A stretch of 64,000 nt of DNA from an uncultured Thermoanaerobaculia bacterium (GCA_964589625.1 CAZPSH010000002.1:68469-132468), one strand, 5' to 3'; positions 20,692 to 62,221 are shown, counted from the first letter of the stretch. Translations and numbers: made by a program. The notes: generated from the sequence alone by a model not told the origin.

Positions 20692-20715
20692 GGATGGCTC
20701 CTTTGGCCCGCGGCG

Positions 20716-33437: not shown

Positions 33438-33555
33438 GGGCCCCGACTATACTGAAAAGCCAGGATCGAGTCGGCTGGCCGCCCGCCAGGGGGGATTCCC
33501 GGCGGGTGTCCGCCGCAGTTTCGGCACGGGACCCAGAGACCGAGGAGGTGTCGCA

Positions 33556-44888: not shown

Positions 44889-47831
44889 ATGAGAAGGCGC
44901 AACGGTTGGGTGATCGGGGCGGTCCTCGCGTGTTTGGCGAGCGCGGCGGAAGGGGCTTACCCGGAACAGAAGCTGCGGTTCGGACTGCGGGTGGGGCCGG
45001 AGCAGTGGACGGCCGCCGGGGAGGCGCTGCGGCTGGCGCCGGCCGATCCGGCCAACCCGGTTGGCCTCACGATCCAAATTCCCGCGGAATGGACCCAGGC
45101 CCCGGATTGGGGAGCCCTGGACGGCGTCTTGGAGGCGGCGAGGGCGGCGAACGCTAGGCTCTGCGTCACCACGGCCATTCCCGCGGAGCCGGCATCGCCC
45201 GAGACCCTGAAATACCTGGCCACCCTCTCCTCCCACGCCGGGGAGGAGGCGGACGCGATGGGACTCTCTTTCGCCCCGTCGGAATTCTCGGAGGCCCTCC
45301 TGTCGGAGCCCGACCAGCTGGCTCTGGCCCTCAAGCGCGTGACGGCTTCCTTGAGGGGGGGAAGCGGCGCGAAGATTCTGCTGGGGGAGGTTTCCCCGGC
45401 CGACCTGCCTCTCTTGGAACCCCTCTACGAGAGGGACTTCCGAGCCTACGTGGAGGGGTATTCGTCGGCGACCACGGGGAGCGCGGGCGAACCGTCGGAG
45501 GCCGTCGTGTCCTTTCTCCAGGGGTACCACCTGGGGGCGCCCTTGCTCCTGCACTTGCCCCGCACGACGAATCCCATCGCCGCCCAAATCCTCGTCCTCG
45601 CCTCGGCGAGCCGGGACGTGACGTACACGGATGTGGAGGCCGTGGACCCCGCTTCCGCCTGGAGTGGGCTCCTGGACCTCCGCGCGCGGCTCTCGCCGGG
45701 GACGGCGCCCGGCTTCGGCGCCATGGCCACGCAGATCACCGGGCCCGAGGGGGCGAGACCCGATGTGGGCCTGATCCACCTCCTCGACGCGGATCGCATG
45801 GCCCAGTCGATGGTGCTCGTGCCCCGCGTGGCGGGCTCTCGCCCCGGAGTCCTCCGGGTCCGGCTCCCGACGGCGGACATCACGGACCCGATCCTGTACA
45901 TCCTTCCGGGGTGCGAGCGCCGGGACGTGGGGTACACGGCGGACCAGAAGAAGCAGGAGACGGCCCTGGAGGTGCCCTGGGAGGGCCGGCCCCTTCTCCT
46001 CTCCTTCAACCGTCTTCGGACGGGCACGGTGGGCCAAGAGGAACTGACGGTCACCAGCGTCTACCGTCTTCCCGTGGAGGTGATCCTGGCGCGGCACCAG
46101 GCCGTGAGCCAGCCCCAGGAGATCTTCCTGGACAACTACGTGCGCGACGCGCAGGTGGACTACCACTTCCGCCTCCCGGGGGGCACCGGGAGCTTGGACG
46201 TCACCTTTCTCAACACCTTCTTCTTCGAGAAGGGGGCCGGGGCCCGGTGGGTCCAGAACCAGCTCCTCGTGAACGGAGTGGCCTGGAAGGGCAAGACCCT
46301 GCCCGAACTGCCCATCATTGAGCCCGAGAAGGTCAACGCCCTACCCCTGGGATTGACCCTGGGCCGGGATTACACGTACCGCTACCTGAAGGACGATGTG
46401 GTGGAGGGGGTGACCTGTTTCGAGGTGGAGTTCGTCCCCGCCGAGGACGCCCGGGGCAGCCTCTACACCGGCAAGGTCTGGATCAGCCACGATTCCTACC
46501 AGAAAATCCGCATGTCGGTCCGCCAGGTCGGGCTCAAGGAGCCCCTCGTCAGCAACGAGGAGACCGATTTCTACGCTCCGTACCAGGCCCCGGACGGGAG
46601 GTCCTTCTGGCTCCTGTCCCGGGTTCGCGGACAGCAGATCTTCTCCGTCGTCGGCCAGAACGTGGTGGGGGAGAGGGAAATCAACTTCGGGGCGCCGCGC
46701 CTGAACGACGCGGGCTTCCGGGCGTCGGTGGCCGAGGCGGAGGCCAGCGACCGGCGCATCCTCCAGGAGACCGACCAGGGCCTCAAATACCTCGAGAAGC
46801 AGGCCGACGGAACCCGTAAGATCCAGTTGGACCAGAAGACGGGCCGCCTCTTCGCGGTGGGCGGATTCTATTACGACAAGAGCCTCGACTTTCCGCTCCC
46901 CCTCGTGGGGGTCAACTATTTCGACTACGACTACAAGAAGACGAAGACCCAGGTGAACCTGCTGGTCGCGGGCGCCGTGAACAGCCTGGCGGCGTCCAAG
47001 GTCAATCTCCTGCCCAAGGTGGACGGGAGCCTGAACACCGTCCTCTTCGCCGTCCCCTTCCAGGACCGCCTCTACCGCGGCGGCGTGGAGGACGAGGGCC
47101 AGAAGGTGAAGATCCTGAGGGAGTCCGTGTCCGTGGGCGCCGGCTGGCGCTTTCAGGAATTCTCCAAGCTCTCCCTGGACCTCCGCGGCAGGTATCTCCG
47201 CTTCTCGCGCACCTCCGACACCGCCCCCGGGTTCGTCCTCCCCGAGGACCACTTCGACTGGGAGGCCGACGTTTCCTACGACTTCTCCTGGAAGGGCTGG
47301 TCCCTGGGCTCGAGTTACGAAATGCACAGAAGGAGCCGGTGGGAGCCGTGGGGGCTTCCCGGAAGCCCGAGGGACGTCTCGGCCTTCAAGGACTACGTCC
47401 AGTGGAGCGCCGCCTTCAGCAAGGCCTTCTACCTTCCCAAGTTCCAGAAGGTGTCGGCCTCCATCTCCTGGCTCGACGGGAAGGACCTGGACCGCTTCAG
47501 CCGCTACGAGTTTACCTACCTCGGCCGTCGATCCCTGGCCGGCTTCGCCGGGAGCGGGATCCGCTTCGACCGGGGCTCCATCGCCGCCCTCGCCTACCAG
47601 TTCAACCTGGCGCAGGTGGTGCGCTTCGGCGTCTCCCTCGAGCACGCGCGCATCCAGCCCATCAAGAGGCTGGGAACGTGGCAGAACCACACCGGGGTGA
47701 GCCTCTCGGGCTCCGTGGCGGGCCCCTGGCAGACGCTGTGGACGCTGGATGCGGGCTACGCGCTCCGCAGCGACGTGGGTCCGGTGGAGAGGGACTATAC
47801 GGTGGCCCTCGCCATCCTCAAGCTCTGGTGA
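44889..47831 (+). CDS. large secreted/outer-membrane protein with C-terminal beta-barrel signature (terminal ...AILKLW)
   Basis: Signal peptide MRRRNGWVIGAVLACLASAAEG; 980 aa; alternating amphipathic strands in last ~300 aa; C-terminal aromatic. Confidence 0.55.
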   Translation: MRRRNGWVIGAVLACLASAAEGAYPEQKLRFGLRVGPEQWTAAGEALRLAPADPANPVGLTIQIPAEWTQAPDWGALDGVLEAARAANARLCVTTAIPAEPASPETLKYLATLSSHAGEEADAMGLSFAPSEFSEALLSEPDQLALALKRVTASLRGGSGAKILLGEVSPADLPLLEPLYERDFRAYVEGYSSATTGSAGEPSEAVVSFLQGYHLGAPLLLHLPRTTNPIAAQILVLASASRDVTYTDVEAVDPASAWSGLLDLRARLSPGTAPGFGAMATQITGPEGARPDVGLIHLLDADRMAQSMVLVPRVAGSRPGVLRVRLPTADITDPILYILPGCERRDVGYTADQKKQETALEVPWEGRPLLLSFNRLRTGTVGQEELTVTSVYRLPVEVILARHQAVSQPQEIFLDNYVRDAQVDYHFRLPGGTGSLDVTFLNTFFFEKGAGARWVQNQLLVNGVAWKGKTLPELPIIEPEKVNALPLGLTLGRDYTYRYLKDDVVEGVTCFEVEFVPAEDARGSLYTGKVWISHDSYQKIRMSVRQVGLKEPLVSNEETDFYAPYQAPDGRSFWLLSRVRGQQIFSVVGQNVVGEREINFGAPRLNDAGFRASVAEAEASDRRILQETDQGLKYLEKQADGTRKIQLDQKTGRLFAVGGFYYDKSLDFPLPLVGVNYFDYDYKKTKTQVNLLVAGAVNSLAASKVNLLPKVDGSLNTVLFAVPFQDRLYRGGVEDEGQKVKILRESVSVGAGWRFQEFSKLSLDLRGRYLRFSRTSDTAPGFVLPEDHFDWEADVSYDFSWKGWSLGSSYEMHRRSRWEPWGLPGSPRDVSAFKDYVQWSAAFSKAFYLPKFQKVSASISWLDGKDLDRFSRYEFTYLGRRSLAGFAGSGIRFDRGSIAALAYQFNLAQVVRFGVSLEHARIQPIKRLGTWQNHTGVSLSGSVAGPWQTLWTLDAGYALRSDVGPVERDYTVALAILKLW

Positions 47832-47841
47832 GGAGGGGAAG

Positions 47842-48810
47842 GTGGCGGCCCGGCTTCCGCTCCTCGTCCTGACGTCCCCCCTCCCCGGGGACGCCCTCGA
47901 CCTCGCCGAGGGAAAGGCCCGGGTTCATACGCTCCGCCCGCGCGGTCCCCTCTCGGAGGAGGCTCTTCTGCGGGCGCTGAGGCGCGCGGTCGGCGCCGTC
48001 ACGCTTCTGAGCCACCCCATGTCGGCGCGGGTCCTGGAATCGTGCCCCAAGCTGAAGGTGGTCTCCAACTACGCGGTGGGGACCGACAACGTGGACCTGG
48101 AGGCCGCACGGAGGTTGGGCATTCGCGTGACGAACACGCCCGATGTCCTCACCGAGGCGACGGCGGACCTCGCCTGGACCCTCCTTCTGGGCGCCGCGCG
48201 GCGGGTCTCCGAGGGCGACCGGATGGTGCGCGCGGGCCGCTTCCGGGGATGGGCCCCCGGCCTTCTCCTCGGGATGGACTTAAGGGGAAAGCTCCTCGGG
48301 GTCGTCGGCATGGGGCGCATCGGCAGGGCCGTCGCCCGGCGCGCGCCCGCCTTCGGCATGAGGGTGGCCTACGCCCAGCGCCGCCGGCTCCTCGAGTCCG
48401 AGGAGGCCGCCCTCGGCGCGACGTACATGGACCTCGACTCCCTCTTGAGGTCGGCCGACGTCGTGAGCCTGCACTGTCCGCTCACACCGGAGACCCGGCA
48501 CCTCCTCGACGACCGACGCCTGCGCTCCATGAAGCCCGGGGCCGTTCTCGTGAACACGGCCCGGGGGCCCGTGGTGGACGAGGCGGCTCTCGTGGAGCGC
48601 CTTCGCGAGGGTCGCCTGTTGGCGGCGGGATTGGACGTTTACGAGGGCGAACCGGCTCTGGCTCCGGGCCTGAGGGACCTGCCCAACGTCCTGCTCCTGC
48701 CGCACCTGGGGTCTGCCGGGGAGGAAACCCGGGCCGAGATGGCGCGGATGGCGGTGGCGGACTGCCTTGCGGTGATGGAAGGCCGGGAGCCGGCCCATCC
48801 CGTCGTTTGA
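47842..48810 (+). CDS. D-isomer-specific 2-hydroxyacid dehydrogenase (glyoxylate/hydroxypyruvate reductase-like)
   Basis: GTG start after GGAGGGGAAG; NAD-binding GVVGMGRIGRAVARRA, catalytic R..E..H pattern. Confidence 0.8.
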   Translation: MAARLPLLVLTSPLPGDALDLAEGKARVHTLRPRGPLSEEALLRALRRAVGAVTLLSHPMSARVLESCPKLKVVSNYAVGTDNVDLEAARRLGIRVTNTPDVLTEATADLAWTLLLGAARRVSEGDRMVRAGRFRGWAPGLLLGMDLRGKLLGVVGMGRIGRAVARRAPAFGMRVAYAQRRRLLESEEAALGATYMDLDSLLRSADVVSLHCPLTPETRHLLDDRRLRSMKPGAVLVNTARGPVVDEAALVERLREGRLLAAGLDVYEGEPALAPGLRDLPNVLLLPHLGSAGEETRAEMARMAVADCLAVMEGREPAHPVV

Positions 48811-48833: not shown

Positions 48834-49892
48834 ATGGCCATGGGCGCGGAGGTGGAACTCCGGCGGGGGGCAAGGCTTCTGGTCCGCCTGCCGAACTGGG
48901 TGGGGGACGTGCTCTTCTGCACGCCCTCCCTGGCGGCCCTCCGCCGCGCGCGGCCCGATGTTCGCGTCACCGCCCTCGTGAGGCCCTCCGTGCTCCCGGC
49001 GGTGGAAGGCCTGCCCTTCGTGGACGAGGTCCTCACGCTCTCGGCAACCACACCCGGCCGAACCCTGGCCGAGGCGCGGAGGCTGCGAGCCCTGGGGTTC
49101 CACGCCGCGCTCGTATTTCCCAAGGGATTCCGCGAGGCGCTCCTCGTGCGGCTGGCGGGCATCCCCGTGCGGATCGGATTGGCCACCGACCGGAGGAGAG
49201 CCCTCCTCACCCGGCCGGTGTCTTTCACCCGCGAGGACTGGGGGCGCCACCACGTGGACCAGTTCGCCCGGGTCCTCTCCCCCCTGGGCATTTCGCTGGC
49301 GGGCGAAGGCATGGCCTTCCCCGTCGGTGCGACGGACCGGGAGGCGGCCTCGGCGCTCCTGCGCGCGTGCGGCGTCGAGAGGCCGTACGCGGTCCTCCAC
49401 GCGGGGGCGAGCAAATTGCCAAGGGCCTGGCACCCGGAGCGCTTCGCCGAGGTGGCCCGCGGGCTCAGCGCGCGTGGAGGTCTGGCGGTGGTCCTCGTTG
49501 GAACGGCGGCCGAATCCGAGCTCTGCGAGGCGGTGAGGGCTGGGGCCCCGGAGGCCGTGAGCGTGGCCGGCAAGACGAACCTGAAGTCCATGGCCGCCCT
49601 CCTGGAGGGGGCCGCTCTTTTTCTGGGCAGCGACTCGGGCCCCATGCACCTCGCCGCCGCGGCGGGCGCGCCGGTGGTGGCGGTCTTCGGTCCTGGCGCC
49701 CCCGGGAAGACGGCCCCCTACGTGCCGGCCCGCCGGTTTCGGGTCGTCTACACGGCGCACCCATGCTCTCCCTGCCGCCAGGCCTTCTGGAAGGAGTGCC
49801 GCCCCTCGCCCTCGGGCAAGCCTCCCTGCATCGAGGGCGTCCATTCCGCCAGCGTGCTGTCCGCCTGTCTGGAGCTCCTGGACTCGAAGTGA
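48834..49892 (+). CDS. LPS heptosyltransferase family glycosyltransferase (GT9)
   Basis: Start MAMGAEVEL after GGAGGGAGG; GT9 motifs (LLVRLPNWVGD, GSDSGPMHLAAAAGAPVV); upstream part of ORF is junk. Confidence 0.75.
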   Translation: MAMGAEVELRRGARLLVRLPNWVGDVLFCTPSLAALRRARPDVRVTALVRPSVLPAVEGLPFVDEVLTLSATTPGRTLAEARRLRALGFHAALVFPKGFREALLVRLAGIPVRIGLATDRRRALLTRPVSFTREDWGRHHVDQFARVLSPLGISLAGEGMAFPVGATDREAASALLRACGVERPYAVLHAGASKLPRAWHPERFAEVARGLSARGGLAVVLVGTAAESELCEAVRAGAPEAVSVAGKTNLKSMAALLEGAALFLGSDSGPMHLAAAAGAPVVAVFGPGAPGKTAPYVPARRFRVVYTAHPCSPCRQAFWKECRPSPSGKPPCIEGVHSASVLSACLELLDSK

Positions 49893-50010: not shown

Positions 50011-50589
50011 TCAAAACCCCAGGGTCTTGCACCGTCCTGAGCCGTCGCAGGCCTTTCCCGGCTCGATCCAACAGGCGTGCGGTTCTGGCTCGGCCTCCCC
50101 GAGGATCTCTCGGAGGATCTGCCGGTCGGGGCTGGAGAGCGTGCGCGAGGGCGCCGCCTGGGAGGCGGCCGGGGCGGGGGAGTCCGGCGGAGGTTGCGCC
50201 GGGGCCCTCTCCGCGGAGGGCAGAGAGGAACCGCGCTCGGATTCCTCCCCCACGAGGGCCACGCCCGTCCCGGAAATGCGGATGAACCACCGGGCGAACT
50301 GCTCCTGCAACCGCGGAGGGTACGAGGAGAGGCCGATGGCGCGCTCCACCGCCGGCCGGTCGAGGAAGACCGGCCGGCCCGCCCGGAGCATAGCGAGGAC
50401 CTGGTCCACCAGGGGATCCCCGGCCTGCAGGTAGGCAAGCCGGCTCAGCTCCGCCAAACCGATTCGCGTGATTCTCAACTCCGCCGGAAGGGGGGCGGAC
50501 TCCGGCGCGCCGGGGTCATCCGGAGGGGCCGATGGCCCTGAGAGCCTCCGGAGGGCGCCCGCCGCCAGGGACTTTACGGCGCTGTCCAC
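50011..50589 (-). CDS. hypothetical protein, last gene of microcompartment operon (Cys-rich C-terminus)
   Basis: 192 aa, no recognised motif; C-terminal CWIEPGKACDGSGRC; start uncertain. Confidence 0.35.
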   Translation of the reverse strand: MDSAVKSLAAGALRRLSGPSAPPDDPGAPESAPLPAELRITRIGLAELSRLAYLQAGDPLVDQVLAMLRAGRPVFLDRPAVERAIGLSSYPPRLQEQFARWFIRISGTGVALVGEESERGSSLPSAERAPAQPPPDSPAPAASQAAPSRTLSSPDRQILREILGEAEPEPHACWIEPGKACDGSGRCKTLGF

Positions 50590-50876
50590 GGGTCATCCCT
50601 GCGGGAAGGGGTCAACCGAACCTGATCTACGACGGCGAGGACCACGGCGTCCAAGGGGTTGTCCCCCCGCCCCACGGCGTCCACCGCGCTTTGCCCCTCG
50701 AGGCAGAGGAGGACCTCGTCGCCCTCTCCAGCGTCCACCAGGTCCACGGCGGTCATGGGGAGCCCAAGGGGCCTCCGGTCCAGGTCGAGGGGTTGCACCT
50801 GAAGGAGCTTGAGTCCCTCGTACTTGTAGAACTTCTGTGTGGCGACGACGGTGCCCACGACCCGGCCCACCTTCAC
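50574..50876 (-). CDS. BMC vertex protein (BMC-P, EutN/CcmL/PduN family), third copy
   Basis: GTG start overlapping previous TGA (GTGA); MKVGRVVGTVVATQKFYKYEGLKLLQVQPL typical BMC-P N-terminus. Confidence 0.7.
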   Translation of the reverse strand: MKVGRVVGTVVATQKFYKYEGLKLLQVQPLDLDRRPLGLPMTAVDLVDAGEGDEVLLCLEGQSAVDAVGRGDNPLDAVVLAVVDQVRLTPSRRDDPWTAP

Positions 50877-51160
50877 GGCAGCGCCTCGTGCAGTTCGTCC
50901 ACGATGCCGACGATGGCGGCGTCGCAGGGAACGATGGCGGGAAGAAAGGCGTAGGAGGCCTCCCGCTGGCGGACGTACAGCACCACCTCGCCGGCGCCCG
51001 CCCCCGCGGCGTCCAAGGCCACGAAGGGCCTCTCCCGGCCGTTCAGCGGCTCCACCAGGAGGAGTTTGTGCCCCTCGAGGCGGGCGTCCTTCATCGTCGA
51101 CACGAGGTTTCCGATCACTTTCCCGACGTTCACCGTCCCGCGCCTTTCGACCCGCCCCAA
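50873..51160 (-). CDS. BMC vertex protein (BMC-P), second copy (start may be internal GTG)
   Basis: VGKVIGNLVSTMKDARLEGHKLLLVEPL...GAGEVVLYV EutN-like. Confidence 0.7.
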   Translation of the reverse strand: MGRVERRGTVNVGKVIGNLVSTMKDARLEGHKLLLVEPLNGRERPFVALDAAGAGAGEVVLYVRQREASYAFLPAIVPCDAAIVGIVDELHEALP

Positions 51161-51164
51161 TCCC

Positions 51165-51232
51165 GAATCCCCAACTCCCCTTGGGTTTCGGAGTTCGAAA
51201 TCCGAAATTCGACATCCGAAATCCGGCCCCCC
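51165..51232. repeat. GGATTTCG-rich intergenic element between BMC-P1 and BMC-P2 (related to 12171..12205 heptamer repeat)
   Basis: Minus strand GGATTTCGGATGTCGAATTTCGGATTTCGAACTCCGAAACCC...GGGGATTCGGGATTGGGG; only non-overlapping junction in the shell operon. Confidence 0.6.
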
Positions 51233-51233
51233 G

Positions 51234-51500
51234 TCAGTCCAGGCTTACGGTGTCCACGATGCCAACGATGGCCGCGTCCACGGGGGCGTCCTTGGTTCGC
51301 TCGGTCATCCGGGCGGACGACCCCGTGCAAAGGATCACGGTTTCCCGGAATCCGGCCTGAACCGTGTCCACCGCCACCTCGTAGCCCCCGTCGGGCTCGA
51401 GGCGGGGCGTGAGCGTCGCCACCACCAGGAGCTTGCACCCCGACAGGCGGGCGTCCTTTCGGGTGGCCACGACGGTGCCCACCACCCTTCCGAGGCGCAC
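51234..51500 (-). CDS. BMC vertex protein (BMC-P), first copy
   Basis: MRLGRVVGTVVATRKDARLSGCKLLVV...; 88 aa. Confidence 0.8.
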   Translation of the reverse strand: MRLGRVVGTVVATRKDARLSGCKLLVVATLTPRLEPDGGYEVAVDTVQAGFRETVILCTGSSARMTERTKDAPVDAAIVGIVDTVSLD

Positions 51501-51503
51501 GAC

Positions 51504-51803
51504 CTACTCGTTGGCGCTGGAGTGCCCGATGGGGAGGGCGTCCTCGAGCGACTTGTGGGGCCGCGGGATCACGTGGACCGTGACCAGCTCGCCCACCTTG
51601 CGGGCGGCGGCGGCCCCCGCGTCCGTGGCGGCCTTCACGGCGGCCACGTCTCCCCGGACGATGGCGGTCACGTAGGCGCCGCCGATCTTCTCCCAGCCCA
51701 CGAGGGTCACCTTGGCGGCCTTGACCATGGCGTCCGACGCCTCGATCATCGCCACCAGACCCTTCGTCTCGATCATGCCCAGGGCCTCGCCGTATTCAGC
51801 CAT
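51504..51803 (-). CDS. BMC hexamer shell protein (BMC-H, PduA/EutM/CcmK family)
   Basis: [77 protein letters not shown] - canonical Pfam00936 pattern. Confidence 0.9.
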
Positions 51804-51833
51804 GCCTTCCTCCTTGCACTCTCACCTCACATC

Positions 51834-52595
51834 TTACTTCATGGACCCCTCCGAATGGAACCGCGCGAACTCGCTCAGGAGCCGGACCAGGTCCTCCTCC
51901 CCCACGAACCGGCCCCCTCCGCCCGCCGCAGGGCACCCGTCGCACGGGCGCCCGGGGGCCGAGGCCAGGGCGTAACGGGCCCTCATGGAGTCCAGGTCGC
52001 GGACCACCGCGTCGGGGAGTTCGCGCCCTCCGCCCAAGGCATCGGTGTACAGGGTGATCCGTGCCGTGTGCTCCAAAGTTTCCATCCGGTAGTAGGCCGT
52101 CCTCACGTCGGGGCCGACGGCCACCGCGCCGTGGTTCGAAAGCAGGGCGGCGGCGCCCCCTCCGAGGATTTCGGCGGCCCTTCGGGCCAGGTCCGGCGTG
52201 GAGGGGAGTTCGAAGGGCACCAGGGGCACCGTTCCGAGGGCGAGGACCGCCTCCGAAAGAAGGGGACGATCCAGCCCGCGTCCCAGACAGGCCAGCGCCG
52301 TGGCGAAGGGCGGGTGGGCGTGAACCACCCCTCCCACGTCTGGTCGGGCCTGGTAAAGGGCCAGGTGGAGGGGCCACTCGCTCGAAGGATTCCCGGAGAG
52401 GGGCCGTCCGCCTGCGTCCAGGCGCGCCAGGAGATCCTCCCGGAGTTCCTCTTTAGGAAGGGCCGTGGGGGTGCAAAGGAACCCCTCGTTGGCCAGTCTG
52501 GCCGAGAGGTTCCCATCCGTGGCGGCGACGAAGCCGCGCCCGTGAAGGCGCCGACCGAAGTCCACGAGGTCACGCCGGACCTCGGCCTCGTCCAT
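51834..52595 (-). CDS. class II aldolase/adducin-family protein (L-fuculose/rhamnulose-phosphate aldolase-like) with C-terminal encapsulation-peptide-like extension
   Basis: ATDGNLSAR, HAHPPFATALA, SNHGAVAVG motifs; ~35-aa tail after Gly-rich linker (AAGGGGRF-VGEEDLVRLLSEFARFH) predicted amphipathic helix. Confidence 0.8.
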   Translation of the reverse strand: MDEAEVRRDLVDFGRRLHGRGFVAATDGNLSARLANEGFLCTPTALPKEELREDLLARLDAGGRPLSGNPSSEWPLHLALYQARPDVGGVVHAHPPFATALACLGRGLDRPLLSEAVLALGTVPLVPFELPSTPDLARRAAEILGGGAAALLSNHGAVAVGPDVRTAYYRMETLEHTARITLYTDALGGGRELPDAVVRDLDSMRARYALASAPGRPCDGCPAAGGGGRFVGEEDLVRLLSEFARFHSEGSMK

Positions 52596-52623
52596 GCCCC
52601 CACCTCCCCCGCGGCGTTCTGCG

Positions 52624-53202
52624 CTACTTTCGGACTTCCTGGGCGAGCCGCTTGGTCATCTCGTCTTCGGGATACAGCGCCTCGAGGTCCTTCAACGCCC
52701 GCTCGGCTCCGGCCTTGTCCTTCAGGTCAAAAAGAAGGACCACCACCCGGTTGTAGAGAGCCTGGCGCTTCTTCGGGTCCACGCCCAGCGCCTTGTCGAA
52801 GTAAGCCAGGGCCTCCCGCATCTTGCCGAGGTTCCGGTTGCAGATCCCGAGGTCCACCAGGACGTCGGTGTTCTGTGGCTGAAGCCTCAGGGCCTCCTCG
52901 TACCAGGGAATGGCCTGGTCGAACTTGCCGCCGTCGAAGTAGATGTTGGCGAGCATGATCCGCTTTTCGGCATCGGCCGGGTTGCTCTCGATGTCCGCGC
53001 GGATCTGGTCGAGCATGGCCTTGTGCTGATCCGGGTCGAAGGCCGGAGAGGCAGGCTGGCTGGACTGGGCCGCCTGGGTGTGCGGAGCGGCGGCCGGAGC
53101 CTTGGCGAGCTTTCCCTCGTAGTATTCACGCGTCACGATGAAACCGAGAACGGCGCCCAGGAGCACGCCGGCCACCAGCAGGAGCAAACTTTCTTTCTTC
53201 AT
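52624..53202 (-). CDS. TPR-repeat protein with N-terminal TM anchor
   Basis: Start MKKESLLLLVAGVLLGAVLGFIV; TPR-like repeats (ANIYFDGGKFDQAIPWYEEAL..., LGICNRNLGKMREALAYFDKAL). Confidence 0.6.
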   Translation of the reverse strand: MKKESLLLLVAGVLLGAVLGFIVTREYYEGKLAKAPAAAPHTQAAQSSQPASPAFDPDQHKAMLDQIRADIESNPADAEKRIMLANIYFDGGKFDQAIPWYEEALRLQPQNTDVLVDLGICNRNLGKMREALAYFDKALGVDPKKRQALYNRVVVLLFDLKDKAGAERALKDLEALYPEDEMTKRLAQEVRK

Positions 53203-53341: not shown

Positions 53342-53418
53342 GCGCCCGTGGCTCAATTGGATAGAGCATCGGCCTACGGAGCCGGGGGTTGCAGGTTCGA
53401 GTCCTGCCGGGCGCACCA
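53342..53418 (+). tRNA. tRNA-Arg (anticodon ACG)
   Basis: 77 nt cloverleaf folded by hand: acceptor GCGCCCG/CGGGCGC, D-arm GCTC-AATTGGATA-GAGC, anticodon arm TCGGC-CTACGGA-GCCGG, T-arm GCAGG-TTCGAGT-CCTGC, encoded CCA. Confidence 0.8.
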
Positions 53419-53456: not shown

Positions 53457-53698
53457 CGCTCGTCTCGCTTCGGTCGCCCCGCTAATCCCCCCACCCGTAG
53501 GAGATTGCGCTCCAGCGGGAGTGAATCCCGCTTCGTGCGGCTATCCTTTTTTTCAAAGGGAACCTGGGCGGGACGAGAAGGGCGGGAATCCCTCCGACGG
53601 CCTTGCGAAGCCGCGACCGGGAAAATAGGTGGCTGTCCCTAATTTTTTCGTTGACTCCCCGCCGGCTTCTCGACTACCCTACGCGCTACGGAGACGCG

Positions 53699-55312
53699 AT
53701 GAGCCCGGAGACGCAGGAAACCCTCTTTCGGAGCGGAGATGCGCCCGCTCCAGAGATCCTCAGCTTCGCGGGTCCCACGGGCGGTGTGGGTACGACCCTC
53801 CTGGCCGCCAACCTGGGAATTCACCTCGCCAAGAAGGGCCGGAGCGTCCTGCTGGTGGACCTGGCGCTGACGGAGGCGGGGTGCCACCTGGCCCTCGGCA
53901 TGCTGAAAACCGATCGCCACCTGGGTTCCCTCGTGACGAAGCAGGTGGTGGACGTCCGGGACGCCATCCAGCCGACCTCCGTGAACAACCTTTCTCTCCT
54001 GGCGGGATATCCGGACTTGCCCGAGGTGGCCAACCTGGCCTATCTCCTCAAGCAGAAGATCCTCGCGAGCCTGCCCACGCTGCCCTTCGACTTTATCCTG
54101 ATCGACGCGGGGTGCGGAACGGGGGCGGACACGCTGGACTTCTTCCTCGCTGGGAGGACTTCCGTGGCCGTCATGCAGGCCACGCCGGCGGGCGTCGAGC
54201 CCTTCTACCGCTTTCTCCGCGCGGCCCTGCGCCGGCTCCTCGTGGAGAGCCTCAACCGAAAGCGCTACCAGGCCCTGGCCCCGCATCTCAACGCCAAGTC
54301 CCCCCTGTCGGGGCTCTGGGACCTCCACGAGACGCGGGAGGAGGACCTTACGGCCGTGGAGCAGGCCATCCGCCGCCACTCCATCGCCTTCGTCCAGACG
54401 GGGCTGTCCTCCGAGAAGGACGCCCGCCTCGGCCTCCAGCTCGAGACCCTCGTGCGGCGCTACTTCCTCTTCCCCACGCGCTTCCTCGGGGCCCTCGACT
54501 GGGACGCGCAAGCCTCGGGGGCCAGCCGCAACCTGGAGCCCATCGGAAAGGCCTACCCCATGTGCCCCTACAGCCTTTCCGTGGAGAAGCTCGCCAACCT
54601 CTTTCTGAGGGAGGAGCGGGACGCGCTGACCGGGGAGGGCCACCTGGCGCCGAGCCCCCTCGAGGAGATGGACGCCTACGAGCTGCTGGAGGTTCCCTAC
54701 AACGCGCCGGCCAAGGAAATCCAGGCCGCCTACCCGCGCCACCTGGAACCCTACCTGGAGACCTCCCCCCTGACCCTGAGCCTCTATTCCCGGGAGGAGC
54801 GGGAGGCCGTGCGGGACCTCTTCGAGGAGGCCTACAAGACCCTCATCACCACGAGTCTGAGGCAGAGGTACGACGAGGACCTCATCGCCAAAGGAAAGAT
54901 GAGCCCCGACCAGCGCGTGGCCGAATACCGGGAGGCCGGCCCCTCTTCCGAGGGGCCCCACGCCCCGCCGGCGGGCCTCCCCGCGCCCGAGAAGGTGGAG
55001 GACACGGCGACCCGGTCGGCCAAGATCCTCGATGCGGTCCTCGCCGAGATAAAGACCTTCGACGGGGCGGGGATCCGGGCGATCCGAGAGGCCCAGGGAA
55101 TTTCGGTGGCCGAGATCGTGGCCGAGACGAACATCCGTTCGTGGTACATCGATTCCATAGAGGCCGAGCGCTTCGAAGCCCTCCCCGGCCTCATCTACCT
55201 AAAAGGATTTGTCCGCCAGGTGGCCAACTACCTCCACCTGGACGCGGAGAAGGTCCTGAAGGATTACCTGGGCCGCTACGAGGCCTGGCGCAGCCGCCGG
55301 GGGCCCGGATGA
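53699..55312 (+). CDS. ParA/MinD-like protein with lysine-less deviant Walker A, fused J-domain-like (no HPD) and C-terminal RodZ/XRE-like HTH
   Basis: AGPTGGVGTTLLAANL vs MinD KGGVGKTT (both Lys absent); DAYELLEVPYNAPAKEIQAAYPRHLEPY resembles J-domain helices I-II with HPD replaced by HLE; C-term GISVAEIVAETNIRSWYIDSIE...LIYLKGFVRQVANYLHLDAEK is RodZ-N/HTH_25-like. Confidence 0.65.
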   Translation: MSPETQETLFRSGDAPAPEILSFAGPTGGVGTTLLAANLGIHLAKKGRSVLLVDLALTEAGCHLALGMLKTDRHLGSLVTKQVVDVRDAIQPTSVNNLSLLAGYPDLPEVANLAYLLKQKILASLPTLPFDFILIDAGCGTGADTLDFFLAGRTSVAVMQATPAGVEPFYRFLRAALRRLLVESLNRKRYQALAPHLNAKSPLSGLWDLHETREEDLTAVEQAIRRHSIAFVQTGLSSEKDARLGLQLETLVRRYFLFPTRFLGALDWDAQASGASRNLEPIGKAYPMCPYSLSVEKLANLFLREERDALTGEGHLAPSPLEEMDAYELLEVPYNAPAKEIQAAYPRHLEPYLETSPLTLSLYSREEREAVRDLFEEAYKTLITTSLRQRYDEDLIAKGKMSPDQRVAEYREAGPSSEGPHAPPAGLPAPEKVEDTATRSAKILDAVLAEIKTFDGAGIRAIREAQGISVAEIVAETNIRSWYIDSIEAERFEALPGLIYLKGFVRQVANYLHLDAEKVLKDYLGRYEAWRSRRGPG

Positions 55313-57065: not shown

Positions 57066-57364
57066 TCCCCCGCAAAGGGAGCGGGCCATATTTACCGAGT
57101 TTTTGGCCGTGACGGGGGGTTGAACGGTGGAGGATGCGCCGGGGCTTGACGGCGCGCGGGTGCCTTCGGTATTCTGAGGCATCCAGTCCGTCGCAGGAGT
57201 TCTGGCGGATGGACTCGGAGGGCGGGAGCGACATGGACACGCAGCGGTCCCAGCGGAGAGGGAGGCGGAGCGGCCGTTGGCCCGCCCCGAGAGGTGATCC
57301 ATTCGGGCTTGTTTCGACACGATACCCCATGTGGTTGAAGCGCTTTGAGTGATGGAATAGGAGG

Positions 57365-60300
57365 TTGAGGATGCACAAAACGTTGAGAACGCGGCTCGTG
57401 GGGATCGGCCTGGTGGTCGCCCTGCTGGCGCTCGCCGTTCCGGCTCTCGCCCAGAACACGTGGCAAAGGCAGTCCACGGTCATGGGCGTCCCCGGGGCGA
57501 ACTTCCCCACGCCCCCGATGGCGATCTGGTCCAACCCGGGAGGCGTTGTGGACGTCGGCACCGCCGGCGGCGGGTACCCTGGCGGAAACCTGGGCTACCT
57601 GTATGAATCCGGGCTCGGAAACTACGGTGTCAATTTCGATTTTCAGGTGACGCCCCCCGGTCCGGCGGCCGATGACTTCACGGCCGTCACGTGGGACGGA
57701 GCCGTGTCCTACGTCGGCAACTGGAACACGGGCCTCTGGGTGTCCAGTGGAGGCATCTGGACCAACGTGTCCGCCGGCGTGCCCTCGGTGAACCAGCACG
57801 TCCAGTGCATCACGTGGGATCCCAGCGCGCCCACGGGCACCCTTCCCCACGACGTCTTCTTCGGCACCTGGGGTAGCGGCGCCTACATGTACGAGGGGAC
57901 CACCTTCACCCAGATCTTCGATCCCCTCTTCGACCTGGTGGACGGCGCCGCCGCCACGCCGGGCATGTACTTCGTCCACGACATCGCCGTGAAGCAGGCC
58001 AACTGCCCGACCACCCCCCGCCTGGTCTTCCTCGCCACGGATGGCGGCGGCCTCCTGCGCGGCACCCAGTCCTGCACCACGGGCCTCTGGTCCTGGAGCC
58101 AGGTCTACGATGCGGACCTCTACATCTACGACGTGACCTACGACTACGCAACGGGTTCCCTCTTCATCGGCACCCAGCAGCACGGCATCCAGCTCTCCAC
58201 GGATGACGGCGCCTCCTGGACCACGCTGTCCGCCTCTCCGGCCATTACGACGCCGGTGACGGACATCCAGTTCGGCGGCTACCCGAACTTCATCTTCGCC
58301 GGCACCCTCGGCCAGGGCGTGTTCCGCTACGACAGCGACGCCGGCTCCTTCTACCAGATCAACAACGGCTATGGCGCCGCCGACATGAACGACCCGAACG
58401 TCCACTGCATCTTCTGGAACGCGGCGGACGGGTACCTCTACGCCGGAACCTCCGACGCGGCGACCCCCACGGCGGGCAACGTGTGGAGCATCAACCTGGT
58501 GCCCTTCACGGGGACCTTCACGCCCACGACGCCCCTCGAGGTCGGTGACGCGGTGAACGACTGCGTGGCCGTGACCCTCGCCAACCAGGCGCCGGCCAAC
58601 TGGACGGCCGCCATCACGCTGGGCTCCCTGCCCCCGGGCATGGCCCCCACGGTGGACAACGTCCCCTATCCGCCGGCCGCCTGCATCGCCGGCGCGCCCA
58701 CGGAGGACGGCTGCTACGACGCCACCCTCACGGTGTGGGACGCCCTCATCAACCGCACCGACTTCGCCAACGCCGACTACACCGTGACCCCCGGCGTGGC
58801 CATCGACGCCCAGCCCAACCCCGCCCAGTACGGCATGCTGGTCCAGTTCACCAGCGCCGTGACGGGCGCCACGGGCACCGTCACCTACGCCTGGGACTTC
58901 GACGTGACCAACGTGTCCCTGCTCTGGCTCCCGGGCACCGACACGAGCACCGAGGCCAACCCCGTGGTCCTCTTCCCCGAGGCCGGCCTCTACCAGGTGG
59001 ACCTCACCGTCACCGACACGGGCGCCGCGGGCGGCTGCACCGTCTCCACGACGAAGACCATCCTCGTCGAGGTGGTGGGCAACCTGGTGGTGGACCCCAA
59101 CGCCACGATCGTGGGATCGGGCGCTCAGTTCCAGTTCTGGGCCAACGTCTCCGGCGGCGTGCCCATGTGCGTGACGCCGAGCGGCTACACCTTCGCCTGG
59201 ACCTTCGTAGACGTGCAGACGGGCGCCACGATCACGACCAGCACCCTCGAGAACCCCGTCATCACCTTCCCCTACACGGGCACCTTCAAGGGCACGGTCA
59301 CCGTGACGGACTGCTCGGGCCACACGGCCACGGGCTTCTGCGTGGTGAACTACAACGGCTTCATGTCGGCCACCGTCTCCTCGGTCTGCAACCCCGGCCC
59401 CACGGGCGTGCCCGTCGCCTTCTACGTGTCGGCGCACAGCATCAGCCCCTCGGCCACGCCTCCGTACACCGTGACCTTCTCCTGGGGTGACGGGACCCCC
59501 GACGTGATCGTGCCCACGATCACGGGCTTCGGCGGCTTCGAGGAGGCATTCCAGCTTCACACCTACGCCGCGGCGGGCACCTACGACGTGCTCATCTCCA
59601 TCTTCGACGGCGGCTCCAACACGACGCTGGTGCCCTACACCCAGACCATCTATCCGCAGTTCACGGGCATCACGATCGCGGCCAACCCCAACCCCGCCTC
59701 GGGCTGCGACCTGCACATCGGCGAGACCATCACCTTCACCGTGACGCCCGTGGGTGGCATCGCGCCGTACCTCTACTCCATCGACTTCGGCGACGGCTCC
59801 ACGGCCACCGTGACCCAGAGCGGGCCGGCGACCTTCAGCCACGCCTACGCCGCGGCCGGCACCTACACGGTCCGCGCCTACGTCACCGATAGCGGCAACT
59901 GCGCCACGACGAACTCGGCCACCTACGGTCCCTTCAACGTGGTGGCGGAGCCCACGGCCGCCGTCACCGTGAACGGCCTGAACTGCAACACGGGCGGCTT
60001 CGGCGTGGAGATCCCGAACTTCGGCGTGAACCCGCTGGCCGTGGCCCTCGGCGCGACCTACACGGCCTTCGCCGGCCACACCGTGAACTACACCTGGACC
60101 TACAACAACAACTGGGCCGCCGACGACCCCGACACCTACAGCAACTCGGTGGTTTCCCCGGCGCCCATCCCCGACTTCATCGAGAACTTCTACCTGGGCT
60201 CCGAGTCCTACCGGACCTTCACCGCCACCTTCACGCTCACCGACACGGGCTTCTGCGTGAACGACACGGTGCTGACCCGGACCATCACCTTCACGATCTA

Positions 60301-62221
60301 CAACCCGCTGGCCGTCAGCGCCCCCTCGTGGGAGCAGGCGTGCGGCTCCATGGCCGTGACCTTCAACGCCTCGGCCAGCGTCTTCGGCGGTATCCCCGGC
60401 TACTACTACGTGTGGAACTTCGGTGACGGCTCGAGCGCCGGACCCTTCACGAACCCCGGCCCCATCACCCACACCTACGCCGCCCCCGGCGAGTACGACG
60501 CCCAGCTGACCGTGACGGACAGCGCGGTGCCGAACTGCACGGGCACGGCCAACACGGCCAACGTCATCTTCCACGTGACGGTGGTGGAACCCTTCGCCGG
60601 CACGGCCTCGGCCTCCCCGACGGTGGGTTGCTCCCCGCTGTGGGTTGACTTCACCTCCAACGTGACCGGCGGCGGACAGCCCGGGACCAACCTCCAGCTC
60701 CGCTGGACGGCGACGGACGGCTGGGACACCGGCTGGGGCGCCTCGGCCACCCCGAGCCACACCTTCACGGCCGCGAGCAGCACGGTCTACTCCTGGTACC
60801 TGTACGCGCGCTCGGGAATCTACAACCCCTACGAGTGCCTGATCGCCTCCGGCGACATCCAGGTGGACGTGGCGGCCTCGAACCTCGTGATCGTGCCCAC
60901 CTCGACCTCCGACTACATCCCGCTCGACGACACCTTCACGACGACCTGGAACGACGGCAGCGCGCCCATCACGCTGACCTACACCCTGACCCGCATCAAG
61001 GACAAGGACGGCAACTTCATCACCCCCGAGGTCACCACCCGGACGGTGACGAACGCCACCTCGCCCTACCAGTTCACCTTCACCTTCGAGAAGACCGGAA
61101 CCTGGACGGTGGTCTGCAACCTGTCCGACGTCTGCACCGCGTCGCTGGCCAGCAACACCGTGACGATCCAGGTCCTCGACACGCCGGCCCTCACCGTGAC
61201 GACCCAGACCCTCATCAACGGCGTCATCGGCACCTCGGGCCTCGCCCCCCTCACCGTGAACTTCTCCTCCGTGCCCCAGGGCGGCGTGCCTCCCTATACC
61301 TTCCTCTGGAACTTCGGTGACGGCACCAACAGCACGGCCCAGAACCCCATCAAGACCTACAACCTTACCGGCCCGTACGATGTGGTCCTCACCGTGACCG
61401 ACTCCTACCCGGCCGCCGCCGGCGGGCCCCAGACGGCCACCGCCAACATCCACATCACCGTCTACGCCCCGCTGACCGCCACCGCCACCGGCGCGCCCAC
61501 GACCCTCATCACGGGCGGCACCGTGAACTTCTCCGCCAGCGTCATGGGGGGCACGGGCTCCTACACCTATGCCTGGACCTTCGGCGACGGCGGCGTGGGC
61601 ACCGGCGCGGCTCCGGCCCACCAGTACCTCACGGCCGGCACCTACTTCGCGCGGGTCCGTGTGACCGACACGGCCACCAACTTCGTGGACAGCAACGACG
61701 TCGTCATCCGGGTGTACAGCCCCGTCGCCGTCGCGGCCTCCGCCACGCCCAGCACCGTCATCCTCGGCAACTCGGTGACCTTCACGGCCCTGGCTTCGGG
61801 TGGCAGCGGCAATTACACCATCGAGTGGAGCTTCGGCGACGGCACCACCGGAACGGGCGCCACGGCCAACAAGACCTACACCACGATCGGCACGAAGAAC
61901 GTGACCGTTACCGTGACCGACACCCAGCTCGCCAGCAACACCATCACCCAGAACCTCACGGTCATCGTGAAGCCCGTTCCTCCGCAGATCCTGTCCTCGA
62001 AGAAGCTCACGGATCCCTTCCGGATCGTGCTCTACGGGACGAATTTCCAGAGCGGCTGCACGGCAACCATCAACGGCACGGGCGTCACGGTGAAGTTCGT
62101 AAGCAGCGGCAAGATCAAGCTGCTCAACGCCAAGAGCCTCTGCCCCAAGGGCGTGCCCGTCACCATCGTGGTCACGAACCCCGACACCGGCGTCTCCAAC
62201 CCCTATCAGTTCACCAGGTAA
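57365..62221 (+). CDS. giant secreted PKD-repeat / IPT-TIG domain cell-surface protein
   Basis: RBS GGAATAGGAGG; signal peptide MRMHKTLRTRLVGIGLVVALLALAVPALA; >=7 PKD signatures (WxFGDG...Y: WNFGDGSSAGPF, FSWGDGTPDV, IDFGDGSTATV, WNFGDGTNSTAQNP, WTFGDGGVGTGAAP, WSFGDGTTGTGATA); C-terminal IPT/TIG-like domain. Confidence 0.8.
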   Translation: MRMHKTLRTRLVGIGLVVALLALAVPALAQNTWQRQSTVMGVPGANFPTPPMAIWSNPGGVVDVGTAGGGYPGGNLGYLYESGLGNYGVNFDFQVTPPGPAADDFTAVTWDGAVSYVGNWNTGLWVSSGGIWTNVSAGVPSVNQHVQCITWDPSAPTGTLPHDVFFGTWGSGAYMYEGTTFTQIFDPLFDLVDGAAATPGMYFVHDIAVKQANCPTTPRLVFLATDGGGLLRGTQSCTTGLWSWSQVYDADLYIYDVTYDYATGSLFIGTQQHGIQLSTDDGASWTTLSASPAITTPVTDIQFGGYPNFIFAGTLGQGVFRYDSDAGSFYQINNGYGAADMNDPNVHCIFWNAADGYLYAGTSDAATPTAGNVWSINLVPFTGTFTPTTPLEVGDAVNDCVAVTLANQAPANWTAAITLGSLPPGMAPTVDNVPYPPAACIAGAPTEDGCYDATLTVWDALINRTDFANADYTVTPGVAIDAQPNPAQYGMLVQFTSAVTGATGTVTYAWDFDVTNVSLLWLPGTDTSTEANPVVLFPEAGLYQVDLTVTDTGAAGGCTVSTTKTILVEVVGNLVVDPNATIVGSGAQFQFWANVSGGVPMCVTPSGYTFAWTFVDVQTGATITTSTLENPVITFPYTGTFKGTVTVTDCSGHTATGFCVVNYNGFMSATVSSVCNPGPTGVPVAFYVSAHSISPSATPPYTVTFSWGDGTPDVIVPTITGFGGFEEAFQLHTYAAAGTYDVLISIFDGGSNTTLVPYTQTIYPQFTGITIAANPNPASGCDLHIGETITFTVTPVGGIAPYLYSIDFGDGSTATVTQSGPATFSHAYAAAGTYTVRAYVTDSGNCATTNSATYGPFNVVAEPTAAVTVNGLNCNTGGFGVEIPNFGVNPLAVALGATYTAFAGHTVNYTWTYNNNWAADDPDTYSNSVVSPAPIPDFIENFYLGSESYRTFTATFTLTDTGFCVNDTVLTRTITFTIYNPLAVSAPSWEQACGSMAVTFNASASVFGGIPGYYYVWNFGDGSSAGPFTNPGPITHTYAAPGEYDAQLTVTDSAVPNCTGTANTANVIFHVTVVEPFAGTASASPTVGCSPLWVDFTSNVTGGGQPGTNLQLRWTATDGWDTGWGASATPSHTFTAASSTVYSWYLYARSGIYNPYECLIASGDIQVDVAASNLVIVPTSTSDYIPLDDTFTTTWNDGSAPITLTYTLTRIKDKDGNFITPEVTTRTVTNATSPYQFTFTFEKTGTWTVVCNLSDVCTASLASNTVTIQVLDTPALTVTTQTLINGVIGTSGLAPLTVNFSSVPQGGVPPYTFLWNFGDGTNSTAQNPIKTYNLTGPYDVVLTVTDSYPAAAGGPQTATANIHITVYAPLTATATGAPTTLITGGTVNFSASVMGGTGSYTYAWTFGDGGVGTGAAPAHQYLTAGTYFARVRVTDTATNFVDSNDVVIRVYSPVAVAASATPSTVILGNSVTFTALASGGSGNYTIEWSFGDGTTGTGATANKTYTTIGTKNVTVTVTDTQLASNTITQNLTVIVKPVPPQILSSKKLTDPFRIVLYGTNFQSGCTATINGTGVTVKFVSSGKIKLLNAKSLCPKGVPVTIVVTNPDTGVSNPYQFTR

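Follow-up and report, generated by a model that had tools for sequence, protein, structure and literature searches.

The gene cluster at positions 50011-53202 (minus strand) of the window, meaning the whole 64,000-nucleotide stretch of DNA that was analysed, is very probably the main locus of an ACI-type (Acidobacteria) bacterial microcompartment. The operon belongs to a type that is already catalogued and does not represent a new minimal PVM-like organelle. Read along the minus strand from 53202 to 50011, the gene order was TPR, class II aldolase, BMC-H, BMC-P1, BMC-P2, BMC-P3 and a 192-aa protein, with every open reading frame of the operon intact. The features of the operon and its flanks were as follows.

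47842-48810, plus strand: 2-hydroxyacid dehydrogenase, 322 aa, glyoxylate/hydroxypyruvate-reductase-like (PF02826, E 1e-60; PF00389, E 3e-28); start codon taken from homologues and uncertain
48840-49892, plus strand: GT9 gene, convergent with the operon
50011-50589, minus strand: 192-aa protein, extended version of the small cysteine protein of ACI loci
50014-50079, minus strand: C-terminal cysteine motif of the 192-aa protein, C-WIEPGKA-C-DGSGR-C-KTLGF
50574-50876, minus strand: BMC-P3, divergent pentamer paralogue, 100 aa, GTG start (PF03319, E 1.5e-19)
50873-51133, minus strand: BMC-P2, divergent pentamer paralogue, 86 aa (PF03319, E 1e-22)
51134-51233: 100-nt spacer between P1 and P2 with heptad repeats GGATTTC/GAATTTC
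51234-51500, minus strand: BMC-P1, 'standard' pentamer (vertex) paralogue, 88 aa (PF03319, E 1e-29)
51504-51803, minus strand: BMC-H, hexamer shell protein, 99 aa (PF00936, E 3.8e-29)
51834-52595, minus strand: class II (metal-dependent) aldolase, 253 aa (PF00596, E 2.5e-49, residues 9-182)
51852-51902, minus strand: predicted C-terminal encapsulation peptide of the aldolase, residues ~232-248, GEEDLVRLLSEFARFHS (from the hydrophobic moment)
52624-53202, minus strand: TPR protein, 192 aa, with an N-terminal membrane anchor (TPR Pfam families)
53342-53418: tRNA-Arg(ACG), on the other flank of the operon

Domain calls were made with Pfam and NCBIfam (with curated cut-offs) on the ORFs of the window, and the matches to PF00596, PF00936 and, three times, PF03319 bore out the original prediction of a microcompartment shell and an aldolase in one operon. 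The host organism is an acidobacterium. Among the 80 best BMC-H matches, 61 of the 64 non-HO loci carried Acidobacteriota titles, the closest genome locus belonged to an Acidobacteriota MAG with a 98% identical BMC-H, and all named homologues of the 192-aa protein were from Acidobacteriota. The order aldolase-BMC-H-P1-P2-P3, with a TPR gene ahead and (a small cysteine protein and) a 2-hydroxyacid dehydrogenase behind, was common to ~60 acidobacterial genomes, and the architecture was kept among relatives down to ~50-60% protein identity. Soil Acidobacteria are rich in ACI compartments and, to our knowledge, no ACI compartment has ever been studied experimentally.

The published ACI type comprises 125 loci, found only in Acidobacteria and uncharacterised (Sutter et al. 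2021, Nat Commun 12:3809, PMC8217296). [quoted passage not shown] Also described are a very short protein of ~80 aa, which has an encapsulation peptide at its N-terminus and three conserved cysteines close to its C-terminus, and further uncharacterised proteins that include one with three conserved histidines (PMC8217296). The window resembled this type in phylum, in its PF00596 aldolase ending in an amphipathic helix, in its one BMC-H with standard motifs, in its three adjacent and mutually divergent BMC-P genes in the same order, in a gene directly after the third BMC-P whose product has a helix at its N-terminus and three conserved cysteines at its C-terminus, in an associated PF00389/PF02826 dehydrogenase and in a main locus without an aldehyde dehydrogenase. 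It differed in its cysteine protein, which has 192 aa instead of ~80 aa, contains an inserted alpha/beta domain of ~80 residues and carries an Asp in place of one of the four usual cysteines, and in its dehydrogenase, which lies on the opposite strand behind the GT9 gene whereas a relative of the same clade (locus L089) has it in the canonical position. Only one of the three uncharacterised ACI proteins was recognised in the window, and the operon held no further unassigned ORF.

BMC-H showed the canonical motifs D-x-x-x-K and IPRPH on direct reading and reached 143 bits against an EutM-type NCBIfam model (cut-off 133). P1 scored 84 bits against the solved pentamer 4i7a and 73 bits against the Haliangium shell pentamer 5v74, with P2 and P3 reaching 43 and 53 bits, respectively, against 5v74. 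Identity between the paralogues was 37-45% over the whole triplet (P2/P1 43%; P2/P3 37%), compared to orthogroup means across ACI loci of 67% for P1, 56% for P2 and 55% for P3. As the paralogues are 37-45% identical and the orthologues 55-67%, these values indicate that the triplet is old and consists of one standard (P1) and two 'special' members (P2 and P3), a widespread arrangement; the division was judged by mutual identity, orthologue position and scores to solved pentamers.

The aldolase carried a C-terminal extension of ~70 residues. Against three solved structures, the aldolases 6vop and 6voq and FucA 1fua, it scored 88-95 bits; it retained on direct reading the FucA-like active-site motifs PSSEW...H, VVHAH and NHG, and fell below every NCBIfam cut-off (best OtnC, 134 bits versus 250; FucA models, 75-100 bits). 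The ACI aldolase has been reported to be most similar to HO and MIC3 aldolases (PMC8217296). The highest helical hydrophobic moment of the protein (0.71) lay at residues ~232-248, and an equivalent amphipathic C-terminal helix ended nearly all of the ~60 ACI aldolases (e.g., EIRLTYRELTALIEDAVRNLR). The tail is predicted to be an encapsulation peptide.

The TPR gene ends 28 nt upstream of the aldolase on the same strand and immediately precedes it in 40 of 61 ACI loci and throughout the clade of the window, so the transcription unit probably begins with the TPR gene. Of the limits given for the operon in the original prediction, the convergent GT9 gene and the tRNA-Arg stood, and the TPR gene, which had been taken as a boundary, is probably not one.

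The 192-aa ORF at the end of the operon had no match in Pfam or NCBIfam and had been described as unknown and Cys-rich; it contains three cysteines only, all in its last 22 residues. Its layout consists of an N-terminal amphipathic helix (~2-14), an alpha/beta domain (~31-112), a P/A-rich linker, a second helix (~151-160) and the C-terminal three-Cys motif. This motif aligned with CxxEPxxxC(C)GSGRCKTLGF of the clade and with C[LIV]IEPxVxCxHCGYCxSxGH of the canonical ACI small proteins. Homologues were proteins of 81-98 aa and the ORF after P3 in ~28 canonical loci, and on this alignment evidence the protein is a homologue of the ACI small cysteine protein. The inserted domain was specific to the clade of the window and resembles half of the PF02441 flavoprotein fold. 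A 212-aa relative with the cysteine motif was also encoded directly after two BMC-P genes in a shell-only locus (L092). Genes of this family thus sit right behind a divergent BMC-P pair both in ACI loci and in one or more shell-only loci. The small cysteine protein of ACI loci is a member of a modular family of ~80 to ~240 aa, with an optional alpha/beta domain, which may interest specialists.

The 2-hydroxyacid dehydrogenase, which sits between a 980-aa secreted protein and the GT9 gene 1.2 kb past the end of the operon, had been overlooked in the original prediction. Its best NCBIfam match was a glyoxylate reductase (327 bits, below cut-off). A 2-hydroxyacid dehydrogenase followed on the operon strand in 28 of 61 related loci, among them L089, where it directly follows the cysteine protein. 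The window protein has 64% identity to the L089 copy and 46-49% identity to those of canonical ACI loci, which identifies it as the ACI-associated orthologue, relocated to the opposite strand. Co-regulation with the operon is not evident because of this strand and its place outside the operon.

Neither an aldehyde dehydrogenase nor PduL nor an acetate kinase was detected in the 64-kb window by Pfam on ORFs that were coding-like by codon-position G+C or in the annotation of near-identical contigs, and phmmer on all ORFs with aldehyde dehydrogenase seeds likewise returned no aldehyde dehydrogenase, in agreement with the original prediction. No BMC-type aldehyde dehydrogenase was found within 10 kb of any of the ~80 ACI loci. 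As no ACI locus examined had this enzyme in its main locus, the local lack of it is uninformative. The ACI aldehyde dehydrogenase is consistently encoded at a satellite locus and not in the main locus, with a peptide near its C-terminus (PMC8217296), and that of the window's genome is expected at such a satellite locus. The suggestion of a satellite shell locus with its enzymatic core elsewhere agrees, for the core, with what the literature describes for the ACI type, and was wrong on the locus, which is a main one because both BMC-H and BMC-P are encoded.

Under the ACI reading, BMC-H hexamers would tile the facets and the three BMC-P paralogues would supply the vertices of a shell to whose lumen the C-terminal helix may recruit the aldolase. 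The aldolase would split a phosphorylated ketose similar to fuculose-1-phosphate or rhamnulose-1-phosphate, which would yield DHAP and a reactive aldehyde; this aldehyde-producing reaction is assumed, since the enzyme passes no curated subfamily cut-off and scores best against a decarboxylase model (OtnC). The shell would retain the aldehyde for oxidation by a CoA-acylating aldehyde dehydrogenase, which in ACI genomes would come from a separate satellite locus and carry its own encapsulation peptide. The hydroxyacid dehydrogenase probably handles a 2-oxo/2-hydroxy acid product or recycles cofactor, and it may act outside the shell because no obvious targeting peptide was seen in it. The N-terminal helix of the 192-aa protein may co-encapsulate it, and the cysteines at its C-terminus are probable ligands of a metal or an iron-sulfur centre.

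A minimal or satellite locus of the PVM or PVM-like (fucose/rhamnose) kind known from Planctomycetes and Verrucomicrobia is very improbable. Erbilgin and colleagues are said to have described, in 2014, PVM compartments of these phyla for fucose and rhamnose catabolism. The type also extends to gut and other lineages that have PVM-type aldolase and shell HMMs. The window shares with PVM a class II aldolase as signature enzyme, here with FucA-like active-site motifs, a canonical BMC-H and a triplet of one standard and two special pentamers. The triplet with an aldolase, which the original prediction had taken as a PVM hallmark, is common to PVM, ACI, HO and FRAG loci (PMC8217296), and the shared PF00596 aldolase, BMC-H and triplet do not discriminate between PVM and the other three. 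PVM loci also carry PvmJ (aldehyde dehydrogenase), PvmB (PduL-type phosphotransacylase), PvmG (acetate kinase), PvmO (lactate/malate-type dehydrogenase) and PvmL (PF02441 flavoprotein), none of which had an equivalent in the 64-kb window, and two BMC-H genes where the window has one. The PVM-like label failed on these missing enzymes and on the acidobacterial host, which is of another phylum; instead, the locus agrees with ACI in gene content and gene order, in the C-terminal peptide of the aldolase, in the cysteine protein and in the hydroxyacid dehydrogenase, and not one of the 80 closest BMC-H loci had a PVM architecture. Apart from ACI loci, these 80 comprised only loci of the HO type (Haliangium ochraceum type, Myxococcota; 16 loci). 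These resemble the window in a BMC-H followed by a standard BMC-P, in the BMC-P triplet and in a related PF00596 aldolase, which in some cases ends in a helix, but in the 16 retrieved BMC-H and P1 are directly followed by the gene for an aldehyde dehydrogenase that bears an N-terminal peptide, and these loci also contain a PduS-like gene and genes for BMC-T. The window lacks all of these, and the HO loci have no cysteine-motif protein. FRAG (fragmented, shell-only) loci share the BMC-P triplet and, in L092, the cysteine-motif relative after two BMC-P genes, but they lack the organised aldolase operon found in the window.

The small enzyme complement and the repeat-bearing 100-nt spacer within the triplet might instead point to a decaying remnant or non-functional shell gene cluster, a reading made extremely improbable by the intact ORFs, by an architecture retained down to ~50-60% protein identity and by the pattern of codon changes. 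Compared to a strain at 87% DNA identity, synonymous/non-synonymous changes numbered 7/0 in BMC-H, 14/1 in P1 and 24/3 in P3, and BMC-H was 100% identical in strains whose DNA was 87-94% identical. The shell genes are under purifying selection and none is a pseudogene; BMC-P pseudogenes were the outcome that the original prediction had named as counting against it. An organelle of the window's acidobacterial clade that works without any aldehyde dehydrogenase, its cargo being only the aldolase and the 192-aa flavoprotein-like cysteine protein, is unlikely. The window had no aldehyde dehydrogenase, and neither did the regions flanking 17 metagenome loci and several genome loci from its clade; the clade has its distinct long cysteine protein, and the satellite dehydrogenase is reported in 'most', not all, ACI genomes (Sutter 2021, PMC8217296); however, absence from the main locus was universal among the ACI loci examined, including types with a documented satellite, and the search covered the window and flanks. 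If this improbable case held, the co-cargo would be a modular protein of targeting helix, half flavoprotein-like domain and cysteine knot, and its family might serve generally as a metal or redox module associated with vertices or shell, so far undescribed as such.

With the ACI main locus as the preferred reading, the value of this locus is mostly corrective, the type having been catalogued in 2021: in Acidobacteria, an operon of an aldolase and a three-pentamer shell without an aldehyde dehydrogenase is to be read as ACI and not as a reduced PVM locus.

Spacing within the shell genes was uneven. BMC-H and P1 lie 3 nt apart, P1 and P2 are separated by 100 nt, P2 and P3 overlap by GTGA (the only GTGA overlap among these genes), and P3 overlaps the 192-aa ORF by 16 nt; the GTGA/ATGA coupling proposed for all three BMC-P genes thus held between P2 and P3 and not between P1 and P2. 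The predicted RNA fold of the P1-P2 spacer was not significant (z -1.4). The heptad motif occurred nine times in the window compared to 0.96 expected, in this spacer and at 12167-12201. In one related locus (L009), a PF13366 ORF was inserted in the corresponding P1-P2 spacer.

Seven genes were tightly packed in a row on the minus strand of the window (G+C ~68%), from 53202 down to 50011, and Pfam matches together with the gene row itself confirmed the shell-plus-aldolase operon of the original prediction, with one BMC-H and three BMC-P genes (P1, P2 and P3 in order of transcription). The operon genes and their neighbors were as follows:

52624-53202, minus strand, membrane-anchored TPR protein
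51834-52595, minus strand, class II aldolase (PF00596, E 2.5e-49)
51504-51803, minus strand, BMC-H (PF00936, E 3.8e-29)
51234-51500, minus strand, BMC-P1 (PF03319)
50873-51133, minus strand, BMC-P2 (PF03319)
50574-50876, minus strand, BMC-P3 (PF03319)
50011-50589, minus strand, 192-aa ORF without a Pfam or NCBIfam match
48840-49892, plus strand, GT9 glycosyltransferase, convergent to the operon as predicted
47842-48810, plus strand, 2-hydroxyacid dehydrogenase (PF02826, E 1e-60; PF00389, E 3e-28), just beyond the GT9 gene
53342-53418, plus strand, tRNA-Arg(ACG)

The start/stop coupling originally described for the pentamer genes was present as a GTGA overlap at P2/P3, whereas BMC-H/P1 and P1/P2 are separated by 3 and 100 nt and P3 overlaps the 192-aa ORF by 16 nt; the TPR/aldolase and aldolase/BMC-H gaps are 28 and 30 nt. 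Compared with a strain at 87% DNA identity, synonymous/non-synonymous codon changes were 7/0 in BMC-H, 14/1 in P1, 24/3 in P3 and 34/10 in the TPR gene. Changes in the three shell genes were mostly synonymous, which argues against pseudogenes, and on sequence grounds the operon genes are functional. Scanning the operon for promoters and terminators detected no promoter-like site on the minus strand and no terminator-like site.

The locus had originally been assigned to the Planctomycetes/Verrucomicrobia (PVM) type as a minimal version without an aldehyde dehydrogenase. BMC-P triplets are common to the PVM, acidobacterial (ACI), Haliangium ochraceum (HO) and fragmented shell-only (FRAG) types (PMC8217296). 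The ACI type, reported from 125 loci in Acidobacteria only (Sutter et al., 2021; PMC8217296), has a main locus made up of a PF00596 aldolase bearing a C-terminal encapsulation peptide, a hydroxyacid dehydrogenase (PF00389/02826), a side-by-side BMC-P triplet plus BMC-H with typical motifs, and three proteins without known homologues, one of which (~80 aa) carries an encapsulation peptide at its N-terminus and three conserved cysteines towards its C-terminus; the aldolase and dehydrogenase HMMs of the ACI type form their own set, separate from the PVM HMMs, and most ACI genomes are reported to encode the aldehyde dehydrogenase at a satellite locus (PMC8217296). Content, gene order, aldolase tail, dehydrogenase and cysteine protein all match the ACI type, and the locus is very probably an ACI main locus, which takes the place of the PVM-like reading. 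It belongs to an already known, uncharacterised kind (a literature search found no experimental work on ACI function) and departs from it in two minor respects: its cysteine protein is long and its dehydrogenase is relocated.

Sixteen public contigs encode the identical BMC-H protein (among them GCA_049325635.1, GCA_040758175.1 and JGI 3300025310), and contigs sharing it are 87-94% identical to the window DNA. A BMC-H scan of one genome per species gave a best match of 98% identity in an Acidobacteriota MAG. ORFs were called in the best 80 loci and labelled by the window's proteins; single-linkage clustering of stop-to-stop ORFs joined unrelated genes in this high-GC DNA and served solely to count labelled genes. 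In 61 loci the genes follow the order aldolase, BMC-H, P1, P2, P3, and 28 of these have the hydroxyacid dehydrogenase downstream on the same strand. Acidobacteriota titles (e.g., Vicinamibacterales, Terriglobia, Acidiferrales) were attached to 61 of the 64 non-HO loci. The remaining 16 of the 80, from Myxococcota, Nitrospinota and Pseudomonadota, are HO-type loci with another layout, in which BMC-H and BMC-P are followed by an aldehyde dehydrogenase bearing an N-terminal helix, then by a PduS-like gene, BMC-T, two BMC-P genes and an aldolase. ACI loci are flanked by housekeeping genes, and no sugar kinase or isomerase was found beside any ACI locus examined. The TPR gene lies immediately 5' of the aldolase in 40 of the 61 loci and is absent from the published ACI description (PMC8217296); its conservation there could reflect a functional link or merely inherited gene order.

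The three pentamers share 37-45% identity with one another and 55-67% with orthologues at the same position in other ACI loci, so the triplication is old. Of the paralogues, P1 most resembles pentamers of solved structure, scoring 84 bits against 4i7a and 73 bits against 5v74, the Haliangium shell pentamer; P2 and P3 score only 43 and 53 bits against the latter. The P1-P2 spacer (51134-51233) is filled by a dispersed heptad repeat of GGATTTC/GAATTTC units, which recurs at 12167-12201 upstream of a sigma-54 regulator gene (9 matches in the window vs 0.96 expected). A structured RNA in the spacer was rejected, given a non-significant fold z-score of -1.4 and the dispersed nature of the motif. 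The closest species-level relative (L009) has a ~450-bp insertion in this spacer (10568-11017) encoding a PF13366 PD-(D/E)XK (GxxExxY-type) protein (E 1.6e-42), and the spacer evidently accommodates insertions.

The aldolase extends ~70 residues past the Pfam domain and ends in GEEDLVRLLSEFARFH, which has the highest helical hydrophobic moment of the protein. An equivalent amphipathic C-terminal helix is present in nearly all of ~60 ACI aldolases, for example EIRLTYRELTALIEDAVRNLR (Vicinamibacteria) and ITLTRRELEALVEEAV (Terriglobia). The FucA-type motifs PSSEW...H, VVHAH and NHG are conserved. The protein scored below every curated subfamily cut-off, the top NCBIfam model being the decarboxylase OtnC (134 bits vs 250).

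The original prediction that no signature enzymes lie nearby held for aldehyde dehydrogenase, PduL and acetate kinase, none of which was detected in the 64-kb window by Pfam on ORFs that were coding-like by codon-position G+C, nor in the precomputed annotation of near-identical contigs; it had, however, overlooked the 2-hydroxyacid dehydrogenase. The best NCBIfam model for this enzyme is glyoxylate reductase (327 bits, under the cut-off of 455). On an 827-kb metagenome contig of the window's own clade (L089), the order is TPR, aldolase, BMC-H, P1, P2, P3, a 179-aa homologue of the 192-aa protein and the dehydrogenase, all on the same strand, with GT9 further downstream. The window dehydrogenase shares 64% identity with the L089 copy and 46-49% with canonical ACI copies and is therefore the ACI dehydrogenase, relocated by rearrangement. 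A further 17 metagenome loci from this clade include both arrangements. A 980-aa protein (44889-47831) with a signal-peptide-like N-terminus and no Pfam or NCBIfam match occurs together with the dehydrogenase and GT9 in some members of the clade (L094, L096, L099) and has no homologue in L089.

A phmmer search with five BMC-type aldehyde dehydrogenases as queries also gave no match among window ORFs of at least 50 aa. None of ~80 ACI loci examined has a BMC-type copy within 10 kb, and its local absence is thus uninformative. An eight-sequence profile of HO-type aldehyde dehydrogenases run against a 5.8-billion-protein set returned no acidobacterial enzyme among the 120 matches listed, all HO-type. 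Near one ACI locus (L069), at a distance of 9.6 kb, a partial dehydrogenase proved to be a generic non-acylating enzyme and was rejected as BMC type.

The 192-aa protein, originally called Cys-rich, contains only three cysteines, all within its last 22 residues. Its 78 homologues (130-209 aa) are all unnamed or annotated 'hypothetical protein [Acidobacteriota]', and a profile search matched only 25 clusters among 1.84 billion cluster representatives. The family alignment (A2) falls into five parts. A conserved helix at the N-terminus (MDxRVxxIAxGALRRLG) precedes a well-conserved domain at residues ~31-112, and a variable linker rich in P/A then leads to a second helix (PDRQILxEILGEA). The C-terminal motif, CxxEPGKAC(C)GSGRCKTLGF, has three invariant cysteines, and the fourth, found in most members, is replaced by Asp in the window protein. 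In canonical ACI loci the ORF directly after P3 encodes a ~72-aa protein, e.g., MTEEELRALVRTAIARH...CIIEPAVMCNHCGYCKSMGH, and an HMM of the family's C-terminal part matched the post-P3 ORF in ~28 loci, always at the extreme C-terminus. A full-library search also retrieved proteins of 81-98 aa that share this N-terminal helix and C-terminal motif (E 1.5e-11 to 1e-4). On these grounds, the 192-aa protein is the small cysteine protein of ACI loci, into which a domain has been inserted. Longer relatives (212-240 aa) have a full-size alpha/beta domain ahead of the same motif; one of them, the 212-aa P0212, has this domain followed by CIIEKGKPCDRCDMCSTLGF, and its gene directly follows two BMC-P genes in L092 (7446-8639; GCA_033583975.1), a shell-only locus with no BMC enzyme nearby. 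This suggests that a BMC-P pair plus cysteine protein is a recurrent module beyond ACI. PDB sequence searches with the longer relatives and Pfam on P0212 and a further relative, P0210, gave no match. PF15953 (PduM-like) was too weak a candidate for the family (3 of 29 homologues, best E 0.23 in a permissive Pfam scan).

The proposed working draws on established metabolosome knowledge and the catalogue paper (PMC8217296), applied to a locus documented by domain identities, selection on genes, synteny, conserved terminal helices and homologies. BMC-H would form the shell facets and the pentamers would close the vertices, with the C-terminal helix bringing the aldolase into the lumen. The aldolase would cleave a ketose phosphate to give DHAP plus an aldehyde; the latter would be held inside and oxidised by an acylating aldehyde dehydrogenase encoded elsewhere. 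The hydroxyacid dehydrogenase (47842-48810), which has no visible targeting extension, probably acts on a 2-oxo/2-hydroxy acid or balances cofactor, and the cysteine protein would be co-encapsulated, probably binding a metal or iron-sulfur centre.

Elsewhere in the window, 19666-26296 and 29094-30737 encode rubrerythrin, a 4Fe-4S ferredoxin, a NuoF-like flavoprotein with ferredoxin domains, 2-oxoacid:ferredoxin oxidoreductase subunits and the selenocysteine synthase SelA, which point to an anaerobic or microaerophilic lifestyle of this acidobacterium. The regions 12210-19781 and 31503-33446 together encode PilB-, PilT- and PilC-like proteins of a type IV pilus or type II secretion system, along with a sigma-54 response regulator, a PilS-like kinase and, further on, a second MshE-type ATPase. 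A 569-aa protein (53603-55312) has a ParA/MinD-like ATPase, a C-terminal HTH_25 domain and a weak match to DnaJ, and 57353-62221 encodes a ~1600-aa PKD-repeat protein.
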